Assembly (NCBI RefSeq): GCF_002854065.1
Contig: NZ_CP024147.1
Source: Escherichia coli
Lineage (GTDB): Bacteria; Pseudomonadota; Gammaproteobacteria; Enterobacterales; Enterobacteriaceae
DNA: 64,000 nucleotides
Strand: one strand, 5' to 3'
Position numbers: made by a program
Shown here: piece by piece, positions 1-6,000 of the stretch
How the letters are laid out: each line of letters starts with the position of its first letter
How positions within the stretch are numbered: the stretch's first letter is position 1

Positions 1-3000
1 TTAAGTCGCGATGCTTCAACTTGCCTGCGGCTGACTAATGAAGGTCGTTTCTGGGCAAGCAATATTTTGCAGTCTCTTAATGAACTAATTCAGGTACTTA
101 ATGCGCCAGCGATTGTGCGTGAAAAACCATAACAGGAGTGATTTATGAGCCATGTCTCGTTACAAGAATTTTTGAAAACGGAGCCGGACGGTACGCTGGA
201 AGTGGTAGCCGAACAATACAACACCACACTGCTGGAGGTAGTGAGAAATCTACCCTTCTCTACCGTAGTGCCAGGCGATAAATTCGATACTGTCTGGGAT
301 ACCGTCTGCGAATGGGGCAACGTCACCACGTTAGTACATACTGCCGATGTAATCCTCGAATTTAGCGGCGAACTGCCTTCGGGTTTCCATCGCCACGGCT
401 ATTTCAACCTACGCGGAAAGCACGGCATGTCCGAGCATATCAAAGCAGAAAACTGCACGCATATTGCCTTTATCGAACGTAAATTTATGGGCATGGACAC
501 CGCGTCCATTCTCTTTTTCAATAAGGAAGGCAGCGCCATGCTGAAAATCTTCCTCGGTAGGGATGACCATCGTCAGCTCCTGAGCGAACAAGTCAGCGCC
601 TTCCATACTCTGGCGGCATCGTTAAAGGAACACGCCTGATGACGCCGTGGCTACTCTTTGGCGCAGGCGGAAAAGGTGTGGGTGTCAGAACGCTTGAACT
701 GGCGCTGGCGGAACAACGTCCGGTCGTTGCTGTCATTCGTCATGCCGATGCCGCCACGAAACTGGCGCAACAAGGCGTACAGGTTTTTACAGGCGACGCC
801 TGTGATGCCAGCGTAGTCGCGGCTGCTTGCCGCGCAGCTGGCCCGGATGCGCTTATCATCTCCACAATGGGAGGAGCTCAGGATTATCTGGCGCACAGAA
901 CAGTGATTGATGAGGCCGAAAAGGCCGGCATCAGTCGCATGATTCTGGTGACCTCTTTGGGATGCGGCGATAGCTGGCCGTTTTTATCGGAGCGGGCAAA
1001 GGCTGCGTTTGGTCAGGCGGTACGGGAAAAAACGCTGGCGGAAAGCTGGCTGCAAACCAGCCAGCTTGATTACGCCATTCTCCGCCCTGGTGGTCTGCTT
1101 GACGGCGCAGCAACAGGCAAAGCACAACGGGTACAAAATCAGGAGTGTCATGGTTTTGTCCGCCGTGCCGATGTCGCCGCACATATCCATGAACTAGCAA
1201 ATGCGCCAGCACTTAACCAGCAGGTCTACAGTCTGATTGAACCGGACCTGAAACCGGCGTGATACCCCGGCGCGGCATGTCCGCGCCGTAATGTCGTAAC
1301 GGAGTTTTGCGTGCACAAGGATTCATTTTCATCCGCCAGGGTCTTTATGGGGCTATCACTATTATTGCTTGCCCTAGTGCTGTTCGGTGCTAGTCAGGGA
1401 GCGTTAAAGATCAGTTTTGATGCCCTTTTTGATGAGGAATACCGCGATATCTGGCTCAATATTCGTCTACCACGGGTTTTGCTGGCGGTGCTGGTAGGTG
1501 CAGCGTTGGCAACCGCAGGGGTAATTATGCAGGGGCTTTTTCGCAACCCAATGGCTGACCCAGGATTACTTGGCGTCAGTAGCGGTTCTGCATTAATGGT
1601 TGGCGTTGCTATTGTGCTGCCCTTCTCCTTCCCAGTGGTGCTGGTGCTCTATGAGCAAATGATGTTTGCCATTGCCGGAAGTTTAGTGGTCTGCACCATC
1701 ATTTTTCTCATCACGCAGCGCCATCGCGATGGCAGCATGATGCAATTATTACTCGCCGGTATCGCCATCAATGCCCTGTGCGGCGCAGCGATCGGCATCC
1801 TGAGCTATATCGGCGATGAGCAGCAGCTACGACAACTCACATTGTGGATGATGGGCAATCTTGGACAGGCGCAATGGCCGACGTTATTGGTTGCCAGTTC
1901 ATTCATCCTTCCGGCCATTATCGCAACAACTAGTCTCGCCGGAACGCTGAATTTACTGCAGCTCGGTGATGAAGAAGCTCATTACCTCGGCGTGAACGTT
2001 AAGCGTAAACGCCAGCAATTACTGTTAGTGAGCTCACTGCTCGTTGGTGCTGCCGTATCGGTAAGCGGCATTATCGGCTTTATTGGCCTGGTGATCCCGC
2101 ATCTGATTCGCATGACTACCGGAGCAAATCACCGCTGGCTAATCCCTTGTTCCGCCCTCGCCGGAGCCTGTTTATTGCTGATGGCAGACACGCTTGCCCG
2201 CACGCTGGTACAGCCAGCAGAAATGCCCGTAGGATTATTAACCAGCCTGCTTGGTGGCCCTTATTTTATGTGGTTGATTCTGCGAAATCGGAGGATCACA
2301 TGATCAGCGCCCAGAATCTGGTTTATAGCCTTCAGGGGCGGCGTCTGACTGATAATGTCTCGCTGACTTTTCCCGGTGGGGAAATTGTTGCAATTCTCGG
2401 CCCTAATGGTGCGGGAAAATCTACGCTGCTTCGCCAGTTAACCGGCTATCTTCAACCTGATAGCGGCGAATGTCGGTTGTTTAATAAGCCATTAAATGAA
2501 TGGTCGATTACTGAACTGGCGAAACACCGGGCCGTGATGCGTCAAAATAGCCACATGGCGTTTCCATTCAGCGTACAAGAAGTTATCCAGATGGGGCAGC
2601 ATCCGCATCGTACTGGTAATCAGGATAATGAAACAGCACAAATAATGGCGTTATGTGACTGTCAGGCGTTAGCAAACCGCGACTATCGGCAATTATCCGG
2701 TGGTGAACAACAGCGCGTGCAACTAGCGCGCCTGCTGGTGCAACTCTGGGAACCTACTCCCTCACCGAAATGGTTATTTCTTGATGAACCAACTTCGGCG
2801 CTGGATATTCACCATCAGCAGCACTTGTTTCGTTTATTACGCCAGTTAGTTCACGAGCGGCAGTTCAATGTCTGCTGCATATTGCACGATCTAAATCTTG
2901 CCGCGCGTTATGCAGACCGTGTTGTATTAATGCAAAAAGGAAAGGTTATCGCAAATGGTAAACCACAGGACGTATTGACACAGCAGGCGCTGACAATGCT

Positions 3001-6000
3001 CTACGGCGCGGATATTACCGTACTTAAAGATCCTGCCAACCATTCACCACTGATCGTCCTCGATCATTAAAAGCAACAGGAGTACCGCACTGGTACTCCT
3101 GCGAATAAATAACTATACAGATTAGCTAATTGAAACGCCTTTCACCCCTGCCATACCTTTTAATAATCGCAACAGATCTTCTATCGACGTTGTGGCATGA
3201 AGCTGGATATCAATGGCGACCACTTCATGATCTTCATTTTCCTGCAACGAAACTAAATCAGTTTTTATTTTTTGCTGCTTAAACCAGTCGAGCATTGATA
3301 CCGTATTACCGTTCACTAGTGTCAGCTGTAAATGGTAATTTTTGTTCATCAGGCGGAAGGTTAATTGATGGAAGACTTCCAGCACCAGCAAGGTCATCAC
3401 TGAACCATAAATACCCAGTTCGTACATACCACTGCCAATAACCATACCAATGGCGGCGGTCACCCAGATATCCGCTGCAGTCGTCAGACCTACAATATTT
3501 TGGTTACGAACGAGAATGTTACCTGCACCGATAAACCCGACGCCCGTCACCACCTGAGCAGCAATACGGCTGGGGTCCAGTCCGACGTGATCTAAAGACA
3601 GCACGTCAGCAAAACCATATTTCGAAACAATCATAAACAGGGCGCTTCCCATGCCAATTAATACATGTGTGCGTAACCCTGCTCCTTTGCCGCGTATTTG
3701 CCTTTCCATGCCAATAGCGCCACAGGCAATTGCCGCGAGTATAAGACGTATAATAAATTCTGCTGTCATATAAAAATGCAAAAAGGAGCAGCAAGATGGC
3801 TCAACTTGCTACTCCTTTTTACTTGTACCTCATTAATTCGGCAAGTCATTAGATGCTTGATTTTTGAAGGTATACAAATTTTTCTGCGGGTTTTTCTTAC
3901 AGTATTCGATCACTTTAGGAATTTGAGTGAGATCGGTTTCATTTAAAGTAACGGTATCGCCACCTTTATATACTGTTTCTTCATGCAGCATCCACCATGC
4001 AACCGGGGTCATTGCTTTTGGATTCAGATCAATAAATTCCTGGCAGGTCATATCTTTAGCGGATTCATTGGCTGCCAGCGCAGATTGTGCGTTCACCAGT
4101 GACAAAGCCGCTACAGCGCCCATAAAAATAAACGCTTTACGGAGAGATGAAATATTCATTTTGTAACCCATTCAATATAGAGATTATATATGAACAGGAG
4201 GAATAGCTGCTTTTAAAGAAGATATTCCGGCCTGTTCAATATGCAAGGAAGTACGATGTAACGCATTCCCGGAATTACATATCTTTCTTAATTTTGTCCC
4301 ATTCGCCTTTAACTTTATCTTTAAAGTTGGCTTGTTTATCCTGAGTACAAGCCTGAACGATAGCTGGGGTTACGGTTGCAATACCCTGAACATCTAAAAC
4401 CGCATCTTCTGGTTTATCTTTGTTGTTCAGCGCTTCAGCAAAACCAACTGCAGTTGGCTGGAAGGATTCGTCCACAGCCAGGAAATCTTCACAGGTCCAG
4501 GAGTTGACCGGTTTTTTGTTATCAGCTGCTTTTTGCGCATCCGCTGCATTGCTCACAACTGGCAGAAGAAGCAGACCACCAAGAATAACGCCTAATACTT
4601 TTTTCATCGTAATATCCTCAACTATAAAGTGAAAGAGCCGTCACGAATCAATTTCGACACTGAGGTTATAACCTGGTTTTCTGTATATGTCATGTTGATG
4701 GAAAATATCAAAATCAGATATTTTTATTTCAATACAATGAGTTACAGATGCATCAGATACTGCAATTAGGAAATTTTTATTAAATCGACTGCATTCTTAG
4801 ACGCGTTTTTGGCATAGATTGATAGCAGGGGATTTTCTTCTTAATTTTATAGGGTGGTTCTATGTTATATATAGATAAGGCAACAATTTTGAAGTTTGAT
4901 CTGGAGATGCTTAAAAAACATCGCAGAGCAATCCAGTTTATTGCCGTGCTGCTGTTTATCGTCGGGTTGCTGTGTATCAGTTTCCCGTTCGTCTCTGGCG
5001 ATATTTTAAGCACAGTAGTGGGTGCATTATTAATCTGCTCGGGTATTGCGCTTATTGTCGGGTTATTCAGCAACCGCAGTCATAATTTCTGGCCGGTATT
5101 ATCCGGTTTCCTCGTCGCAGTCGCCTATTTATTGATCGGCTATTTCTTCATCCGCGCACCGGAGCTGGGCATTTTTGCCATTGCGGCATTTATTGCCGGT
5201 TTGTTCTGTGTTGCAGGGGTTATTCGCCTGATGAGTTGGTATCGTCAGCGTTCAATGAAAGGCAGCTGGCTACAGCTCGTTATTGGTGTGCTGGATATCG
5301 TCATTGCCTGGATATTCCTTGGTGCAACGCCGATGGTGTCTGTAACGCTGGTTTCCACACTGGTGGGAATTGAACTGATATTTAGCGCCGCCAGCCTGTT
5401 CAGCTTCGCCAGTTTGTTCGTTAAGCAGCAATAATTATCCCGGTTGTCACCCGGATCATAGTCACTTGATGTGACTATGATCCGATTAATACTCTCTCCG
5501 CTACGCGGAGTTGTAGATCAATTGCGCACTATCATTGAAATAATTACCTGCTAGTGATTATTTCAACCTACTGAATTTCATCTAATTTTTTTCACTCCAT
5601 GGCAAATTAGCCATTTCAAACATTATCATGGCTGATATTTTCCGTAGTCAGGTTTAATGTTTTAAAAGTGCTGTGGGAAAGTGAACAAAGAGTTCCGTAA
5701 GCGTTGATGCTATGGGCGGTTAAATAAGTAATCCGGGTTCATTTTTTTGCAACTGGCGTTGATTACATTGCATAAATATCCGTGTCTCCAGACGCTATAT
5801 AAAAACCTGAAGACATGAATGAGTTATTTACTCAGGTAATTTCAATGCGTTAAAAGAAAGCTGGCAATCCAATTGCCAGCTTAAGTCGAAACAAGGAGAC
5901 TCGATATTTAAATCGGATTACATTATAACTTTAGTAATATTCTTCAGAGATCACAAACTGGTTATTGATAACTTATTCTTGGGCAGTAATCCGCAAACGT

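Follow-up and report, generated by a model that had tools for sequence, protein, structure and literature searches.

[quoted passage not shown]

Positions 1 to 3116 of the window (the whole 64,000-nucleotide stretch of E. coli DNA analyzed, from contig NZ_CP024147.1) are the right-hand end of the chu/shu cluster, O-island 140, which is an ordinary and already known element. This DNA is very probably the distal end of a 9,057-bp chuS-chuA plus chuTWXYUV cluster that, in chu-positive Escherichia, occupies the interval from dctR to yhiD and that constitutes an old, nonmobile module with its own hairpin.

The right flank of the cluster, yhiD, was read directly in the window, and the left flank, slp-dctR, was taken from a genome that is identical over window positions 1 to 4200. 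The gene order there is slp-dctR-[chuS-chuA-chuT-chuW-chuX-chuY-chuU-chuV]-yhiD-hdeB-hdeA-hdeD-gadE...gadA, and in K-12 it is slp-dctR-yhiD. The acid fitness island surrounds the chu cluster on both sides, with dctR (yhiF) and yhiD as the immediate neighbors of chu. The original prediction had the chu genes abutting that island; the junction with yhiD is as described, but abutment does not hold, since slp-dctR stands on the other side of chu. The location of chu, as O-island 140, inside the acid fitness island has already been published (PMC10540162, PMC3893438, and bioRxiv 10.1101/188599). In NZ_CM128593.1, which shows 100% identity to the window over positions 1 to 4200 and about 100.0% over 1 to 24000, the annotation gives intact copies of chuS, chuA, chuT, and chuW, of which the first three lie beyond the window.

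Gene content, gene order, and position between yhiF (dctR) and yhiD are the same as in O-island 140 of O157:H7 (EDL933 and Sakai) and in the shu locus of Shigella dysenteriae. O157:H7 strains have the same 130-bp junction sequence (100% identity), and over 4.2 kb they are 99.0% identical to the window. The size measured here agrees with the published 9.1 kb of the chu locus (PMC5458455). Nothing of substance distinguishes the cluster from O-island 140; the window strain is not O157:H7.

The junction between island and core had been placed in the 51-bp spacer at 3071 to 3121, which runs from the chuV stop codon (TAA, 3068 to 3070) to the minus-strand yhiD stop codon (3122 to 3124). Comparison with chu-negative genomes confirmed this and narrowed the junction to a single position, so that for annotation purposes the exact island/core breakpoint is now fixed at 3116/3117. 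Indeed, among complete E. coli genomes, every chu-negative genome starts aligning at position 3117, and direct comparison with K-12 sets the breakpoint 5 bp beyond the stop codon of yhiD. At its other end, the chu-specific segment of 9,057 bp starts one base past the dctR stop codon. The expectation that K-12 lacks chu at this site was also correct: dctR and yhiD are direct neighbors there, 41 bp apart with no chu gene between them, and a 35-bp spacer unrelated to chu takes the place of the whole segment. A search for a remnant of this spacer within the chu segment gave a best local score of 11, versus a shuffle mean of 11.9.

Table 1 Features at the chu end of the window
Feature	Position	Strand	Description	Basis
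chuW' (hutW)	1-132	+	Final 43 codons and stop TAA (130-132); 5' part beyond the window edge	
chuX (hutX)	145-639	+	Cytosolic heme-binding carrier, 164 aa	ORF, TIGR04108, PF06228, PDB 2OVI
chuY	639-1262	+	NADPH-dependent anaerobilin reductase, 207 aa	ORF, PF13460, PDB 5FFQ/5GUY
G+C-rich 8-bp hairpin	1268-1288	+	CGGCGCGG-CATGT-CCGCGCCG, within the 48-bp chuY-chuU gap	
chuU (shuU)	1311-2303	+	Heme ABC transporter permease, 330 aa, GTG start	ORF, PF01032, RefSeq
chuV (shuV/hmuV)	2300-3070	+	Heme ABC transporter ATPase, 256 aa	NF010068, PF00005
Terminator-like hairpin	3076-3102	-	Arms 3077-3086/3092-3101, 5-nt loop, inside chu-specific DNA	
Right-hand breakpoint	3116/3117		chu-specific DNA up to 3116; common to chu-negative genomes from 3117 (ACAGATTAGC...)	
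yhiD	3122-3769	-	MgtC/SapB-family inner-membrane protein, 215 aa	NF007431, PF02308, annotation

The assignments of chuW', chuX, chuY, chuU, and chuV were borne out, with all five proteins matching Chu families and the RefSeq labels concurring. Frame 1 is open to the TAA of chuW', which encodes the C-terminal end of a radical-SAM anaerobic heme-degrading methyltransferase. Its match to the TIGR04107 ChuW/HutW model is weak (model positions 391 to 419 of 419; E value, 5.5e-4), and RefSeq annotates it as hutW in DNA identical over window positions 1 to 4200 (L001 12795-14132). ChuX, with a Shine-Dalgarno sequence (AGGAG) ahead of its gene at 135 to 139, scored 202.8 bits against TIGR04108 HutX (cutoff, 110) and matched the ChuX structure PDB 2OVI at 1.4e-107. 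No model matched ChuY in the NCBIfam search, and its assignment rests on Pfam and on full-length matches to PDB 5FFQ and 5GUY (1e-133 to 1e-134); the function of anaerobilin reductase was assigned from PMC10404700. ChuU scored 318.9 bits against Pfam PF01032 (FecCD), in agreement with the RefSeq coordinates. ChuV, whose start is preceded by GGAGG at 2290 to 2294, matched the NF010068 heme ABC ATPase model over residues 1 to 255 with 393.5 bits (cutoff, 261). The convergent yhiD, with which the acid fitness island unit hdeAB-yhiD ends, matched NF007431 over all of its length (1 to 215 of 215; 400.4 bits).

The overlaps of stop and start codons described earlier can be read directly from the sequence. 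At chuX/chuY the overlap is TGATG, where the chuX stop TGA (637 to 639) and the chuY ATG (639 to 641) have one base in common, and at chuU/chuV it is ATGA, formed by the chuV ATG (2300 to 2302) and the chuU stop TGA (2301 to 2303). This arrangement suggests translational coupling of chuX with chuY and of chuU with chuV. The hairpin in the chuY-chuU gap has no U-tract and is as stable as shuffles of its G+C-rich context (z, −0.05). A separate shuUV promoter in the region of this gap is a prediction of Wyckoff 1998, as quoted in PMC5458455; a search of the plus strand in and near the 48-bp gap for a consensus-like chuUV promoter did not find one.

The genes in the window would make up the cytoplasmic part of the heme pathway. 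Import of heme across the inner membrane would fall to ChuU and ChuV acting with ChuT, ChuX would act as the heme carrier, ChuW would open the heme ring anaerobically, and ChuY would reduce the anaerobilin product, with the biochemistry of ChuW, ChuX, and ChuY being that of PMC10404700. The hutWXZ operon of Vibrio cholerae and hmuRSTUV of Yersinia have in common with chu the HutW/ChuW radical-SAM enzyme, the HutX/ChuX carrier, and a BtuCD-type heme ABC importer. The chu cluster differs from these operons in its genomic context and in having ChuY, an NAD(P)H-binding Rossmann-fold reductase, instead of HutZ.

The perfect 10-bp-stem hairpin that had been noticed in the chuV-yhiD spacer was confirmed. 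Its arms are 100% complementary, the stem grows to 11 bp on the minus strand when a G-U pair is counted, and the hairpin sequence occurs once in the window. Compared with shuffles, the fold is stable on both strands, with −17.9 kcal/mol (z, −4.3) on the plus strand and −21.8 kcal/mol (z, −2.9) on the minus strand. Downstream of the hairpin on the minus strand comes UUGCUUUUAAU, overlapping the chuV stop codon. The plus-strand sequence after the stem, CGAAUAAAUAAC, does not form a U-tract. In a terminator scan of the spacer, only one terminator-like site was reported, and it lies on the minus strand. In the yhiD sense the structure has the makeup of an intrinsic terminator, with 11 pairs, 6 of them G-C, and the tail TGCTTTTAAT; in the chuV sense it does not. 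With its U-tract confined to the minus strand, the hairpin was read as a terminator of yhiD rather than of chuV. Judged from the sequence, it most likely serves for intrinsic termination of the hdeAB-yhiD transcript that runs toward chuV, and this orientation is a small addition of the present work.

In its G+C-rich 10- to 11-bp stem, 5-nt loop, minus-strand U-rich tract, and complementary A-rich tract ahead of the stem on the plus strand, the hairpin resembles the Rho-independent terminators found between convergent genes. It is unlike symmetric bidirectional terminators in having, as far as the nucleotide sequence tells, a U-tract on one strand only. A role as terminator or 3' stabilizer of the chuUV (chuTWXYUV) mRNA, and not of yhiD, is possible but somewhat doubtful: the hairpin starts 6 nt past the chuV stop codon, folds stably in that direction, and travels with the chu allele, but the plus-strand stem lacks a U-tract and the scan picked the hairpin up on the opposite strand only. 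Protection of a 3' end by a stem does not require a U-tract, and the chuV and yhiD roles are not mutually exclusive. In addition to the terminator function proposed for yhiD, the hairpin may serve as a cap at the 3' end of chuV mRNA. Its stem is invariant in seven diverse chu-positive sequences, in which the loop and flanks vary; no covariation was seen among these seven, which with an invariant stem is uninformative. An Rfam search of positions 1 to 3121 gave no match, and the dctR-yhiD spacer of K-12 contains no terminator-like site.

The same right-hand junction and hairpin were observed in two divergent Escherichia genomes (L004 and L005), and Escherichia albertii has chu at the same site. 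In comparison with these genomes, DNA identity is 87 to 94% for the chu genes and 84 to 92% for the flanking slp, dctR, yhiD, and hdeB. The K-12 chu-minus spacer can be aligned, with no gaps, to those of Escherichia whittamii and strain E1V33, with 22 of 35 positions identical (p of about 0.006 from shuffles), a homology that rests on 35 bp and could be overstated. The presence/absence dimorphism is considered old because the divergence of chu tracks that of its flanks and because the chu-minus spacer can be aligned to those of E. whittamii and E1V33. The chu cluster would then be an old presence/absence module with two alleles, chu and a spacer of ∼35 bp, whose breakpoints would be identical throughout E. 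coli and which would be present in several Escherichia species. The age of both alleles and their occurrence across species are a small addition here. We tentatively propose, as a possibility short of an even chance, a trans-species chu+/chu− dimorphism with fixed breakpoints that is kept or exchanged by homologous recombination, together with a chu-borne hairpin that terminates hdeAB-yhiD and shields chuV from antisense read-through, a signal absent from the chu-minus allele.

It is unlikely that the chu-negative, K-12-type state arose by a recent clean deletion of an ancestral chu cluster, with the 35-bp spacer as its scar. The presence of chu at this site in E. albertii and in two other divergent Escherichia genomes speaks for a deletion, and according to the xenoGI study (10.1101/188599) the distribution requires either insertion followed by clean deletion or horizontal transfer with gene conversion. 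This is, however, at odds with a spacer that has no similarity to the ends or interior of the chu segment and that can be aligned to those of E. whittamii and E1V33, both chu-negative, and the acid fitness island of Escherichia fergusonii is likewise chu-negative. These three observations indicate that the chu-minus allele is itself old. The E. fergusonii locus was also tried for polarizing the event, but its 73-bp spacer could be aligned to neither allele. Homologous recombination acting through the flanks has probably transmitted or exchanged the chu-minus allele.

The chu junction is present in 2,235 of 5,426 complete E. coli genomes (41%), and the K-12 junction is present in 3,179 of the same set. 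Closest to the window are two genomes at 100%, CUWW06 and 100416, followed by O157:H16 Santai at 99.3%; the closest isolates came from wastewater, human stool, chicken, pig, and baboon. The original prediction that the window derives from a chu-positive lineage was right, but its restriction to pathogenic phylogroups or Shigella proved too narrow for a cluster carried by 41% of complete E. coli genomes. The presence of chu is not a pathogen marker, and caution is needed so that it is not taken as a sign of a pathogen. chuA is a standard marker for phylotyping.

Moreover, the chu cluster is not a mobile island. A search of the 32 kb surrounding the locus gave no tRNA gene, no integrase or transposase gene lies in the 9,057-bp segment, where the annotation shows chu genes only, and no direct or inverted repeats above chance occur at the two ends of the segment. 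Among the classical attributes of mobile or pathogenicity islands, a tRNA site, an integrase, a transposase, and direct repeats are lacking, and a deviant base composition is present, with a G+C content of 50.1% in the chu segment versus 42 to 46% in the flanking acid fitness island DNA. That chu is a classical mobile pathogenicity island, recently gained and inserted beside yhiD in pathogenic lineages, is a highly improbable and largely refuted reading, for which the G+C contrast, the absence of chu from K-12, and the literature name "O-island" can be cited, but which is contradicted by the missing mobility features, by the carriage of chu in so many genomes, including wastewater, chicken, pig, and baboon isolates, and by other Escherichia species having the same junction with chu divergence equal to that of the flanks. 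The lack of mobility signatures is another small addition of this work; together with the age of the two alleles and the orientation of the junction hairpin, it bears on the distribution of the heme locus, long noted as "puzzling," and opens no new question. As regards base composition, the 50% G+C of the chu segment is close to the window mean of 51%, and it is the flanks, not chu, that are compositionally atypical.

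The genes at the start of the window were called from the ORF list and by direct reading of the sequence (see the table). The stop codon of chuX and the start codon of chuY have one base in common (TGATG, 637-641), and the start of chuV overlaps the stop of chuU by four bases (ATGA, 2300-2303). The positions of the chuV and yhiD stop codons set the spacer between these genes at 51 bp (3071-3121). Together with an inverted-repeat search, these readings agree with the original prediction in every element described, namely the partial chuW, the genes chuX to chuV, the overlaps, the spacer and its perfect 10-bp-stem hairpin.

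Coordinates of genes and RNA matches in the window
Feature	Position	Strand	Basis or remark
chuW' (partial)	window edge to TAA 130-132	+	open frame entering from the edge
chuX	145-639	+	ORF list, sequence
chuY	639-1262	+	ORF list, sequence
chuU	1311-2303	+	GTG start
chuV	2300-3070	+	stop TAA 3068-3070; GGAGG at 2290-2294
yhiD	3769 down to stop 3124-3122	-	ORF list, sequence
ES205	6877-6948		Rfam match (coordinates by listing order)
GadY	12727-12840		Rfam match, 150 bits (coordinates by listing order)
ES036 (CssrF)	54327-54369		Rfam match (coordinates by listing order)
naRNA4 (CssrE)	56613-56694		Rfam match (coordinates by listing order)
tRNA (one)	56791-56864	-	Rfam match (coordinates by listing order)

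Protein searches upheld the assignments of the four complete chu genes. ChuX scored 202.8 bits against the HutX equivalog model (cut-off 110) and matched the solved ChuX structure 2OVI at 1.4e-107. ChuY, which is without an NCBIfam model, gave full-length matches to the ChuY/ShuY structures 5FFQ and 5GUY (about 1e-134) and also matched Pfam NAD_binding_10. ChuU matched the FecCD permease family over its full length (318.9 bits), and ChuV scored 393.5 bits against the heme ABC ATPase equivalog (cut-off 261). The 43-residue chuW fragment, annotated hutW in identical DNA, matched the C-terminal end alone of the ChuW/HutW model, and YhiD passed the MgtC/SapB equivalog over 215/215 residues. According to published work (PMC10404700), the anaerobic opening of heme to anaerobilin is catalyzed by ChuW, a radical-SAM methyltransferase; ChuX binds and carries heme, and ChuY reduces anaerobilin in an NADPH-dependent reaction.

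The RefSeq chromosome NZ_CM128593.1, 100% identical to window 1-4200, has the gene order slp, dctR, chuS, chuA, chuT (shuT), chuW, chuX, chuY, chuU, chuV, yhiD, hdeB, hdeA, hdeD, gadE, mdtEF, gadW, gadX, gadA. In K-12 the order is slp, dctR, yhiD, hdeB onward, with dctR and yhiD 41 bp apart, which confirms the expected absence of chu from this site. Since slp-dctR lies on one side and yhiD-hdeB to gadA on the other, the chu cluster sits inside the acid fitness island, contrary to the proposal that it abuts it. This arrangement is already known: O-island 140 is described as “inserted between yhiF and yhiD” (PMC10540162), and the co-localization is discussed explicitly in the xenoGI paper (10.1101/188599). 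The finding is real and was correctly interpreted apart from two refinements, this one and the lack of pathogen specificity.

The breakpoints were obtained by direct comparison of chu-positive DNA with K-12. The shared sequence on the left stops at ...CTGGTGTGAA, one base past the dctR stop codon, and restarts on the right at ACAGATTAGC (window 3117), 5 bp outside the yhiD stop codon. The right boundary thus falls before window 3117, within the 3071-3121 interval in which the junction had been placed, and the hairpin at 3076-3102 belongs to chu-specific DNA. Between the breakpoints, chu-positive DNA holds 9,057 bp (published size of the cluster, 9.1 kb; PMC5458455), and K-12 holds 35 unrelated bases, TTTCAGGCTTACGGTGAGTCTGGCTACGCTGCCAC.

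Among 5,426 complete E. coli genomes, the full-length chu junction was found in 2,235 and the contiguous K-12-type junction in 3,179, with a handful deviating; the alignment of every chu-negative genome starts at window 3117. In essence, the locus has two alleles that differ cleanly at fixed breakpoints. Wastewater and human-stool strains are nearest to the window (100%), followed at 99.2-99.4% by human, chicken, duck, pig, mink, calf and baboon isolates, including O157:H16 Santai; identity to O157 is 99.0% over 4.2 kb. The source is of a chu-positive lineage, as proposed, but the restriction of such lineages to pathogens does not hold, and chu carriage does not make the source strain a pathogen. 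Among the deviating genomes is chu-positive E. coli NMBU-W13E19 (NZ_CP043406.1, locus L014 1054-2311, own coordinates), which has an IS5 between chuV and yhiD; its annotation gives yhiD as a pseudogene truncated at the C terminus.

Signatures of mobility were sought at the locus. The 32 kb around the locus contain no tRNA, the chu segment as annotated by RefSeq in NZ_CM128593.1 holds no integrase or transposase, and no terminal direct or inverted repeat of the segment rises above chance. At 50.1% G+C the segment is close to the window mean (51.0%), so the atypical DNA is that of its acid fitness island flanks, at 42-46%.

The perfect inverted repeat in the spacer (CAGGAGTACC/GGTACTCCTG, 3077-3086/3092-3101, loop of 5 nt) occurs once in the window, and its fold is more stable than those of shuffled sequences (z of -4.3 for the plus and -2.9 for the minus strand). 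The minus-strand form has 11 pairs and an energy of -21.8 kcal/mol in context, and its tail, UUGCUUUUAAU, overlaps the chuV stop codon in complement. The plus-strand stem (-17.9 kcal/mol) has CGAAUAAAUAAC after it instead of a U-tract. A consensus terminator scan returned the hairpin as the sole terminator-like site of the chuV-yhiD spacer, on the minus strand only, and found none in the K-12 dctR-yhiD spacer, where no fold exceeded chance. The ten stem pairs are constant in 7/7 diverse chu-positive sequences, with variation in the loop (A/T) and neighboring bases; such an invariant stem is compatible with constraint and gives no covariation. The hairpin would mainly terminate the hdeAB-yhiD transcript on its entry into the chu segment, and may also protect the 3′ end of the chuV mRNA. 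At the left end, after chuS (8060-8118 of the NZ_CM128593.1 locus), a minus-strand terminator-like hairpin of 12 pairs including G-U precedes UUUAUAUU (z of -3.0), so that both ends of the segment carry predicted minus-strand terminators. Another inverted repeat, imperfect and 19 bp long (3780-3820, AAAAAGGAGCAGCAAGATG / CAACTTGCTACTCCTTTTT, 89% complementary), lies in the gap from the hdeB stop to the start of yhiD. A U-rich run follows it on the minus strand, and it resembles an internal hdeAB terminator or attenuator placed before yhiD.

A DctR scan with one genome per species gave six Escherichia loci. In two (L004 and L005) the chu cluster is complete, and its right junction and hairpin are the same as in the window. 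E. albertii NBRC 107761 (L007 19545-19640) has the full cluster at the same site without the chuV-proximal hairpin and without yhiD, an absence remarked in the xenoGI paper (10.1101/188599); because yhiD is missing, the homologue of the 3780-3820 hairpin, the putative hdeB-proximal terminator, lies within a few bases of chuV. E. whittamii (L008) and strain E1V33 (L006) are chu-negative. Escherichia sp. MOD1-EC7003 (L003) retains chuS-chuA alone. At 13600-14320 it shows a third allele, with a repeat of ~96 bp in place of chuT-chuV and the hairpin and a right breakpoint at window 3113/3114, within 3 bp of the chu/K-12 breakpoint; a second, inverted copy (122 bp) is inserted upstream of chuA. We take these repeats to be ERIC-like because they differ from the primers ERIC1R and ERIC2 at 3-4 positions of 22.

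Compared with L004, L005 and E. albertii, the window lineage has 87-94% DNA identity in the chu genes and 84-92% in the flanking slp, dctR, yhiD and hdeB. Such similar divergence fits long residence at the site better than it fits recent, independent acquisitions. The 35-bp spacer of K-12 can be aligned ungapped to those of E. whittamii and E1V33 (22/35 identical, p of about 0.006 from shuffles) and to neither end of the chu segment, which argues that the chu-minus allele is not a fresh deletion scar. The acid fitness island of E. fergusonii, located by protein search and contig look-up, is also chu-negative, and its 73-bp dctR-yhiD spacer could not be aligned. In ATCC 35469 this spacer (L009 8565-8637) has its own hairpin, GGGAGTGGC-CTAT-GCCACGCCC with a run of A before it, which reads on the yhiD strand as a canonical terminator with a long U-tract and is unrelated in sequence to that of the chu allele. 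The most economical reading is that both alleles are old and that their patchy spread reflects inheritance and homologous recombination through the conserved flanks, allele exchange of this kind having been raised as a possibility in the xenoGI paper (10.1101/188599).

The RNAs listed as Rfam matches in the table are those one would expect in the gadE-gadX region and downstream of it. An rdlD antitoxin RNA is matched twice, identically and 483 bp apart (47983-48048 and 48466-48531, 89.2 bits each), which implies that the ldr/rdl type I toxin-antitoxin unit is duplicated in tandem; K-12 has a single ldrD/rdlD copy at this locus. A DctR homologue, 52% identical, was found in two Logan assemblies (ERR5160870, L012 10001-19318; SRR31860676, L013) beside a urea transporter, a complete urease cluster, an ammonium transporter and two HdeA-family genes, a different acid-resistance neighborhood around the same regulator and chaperones.
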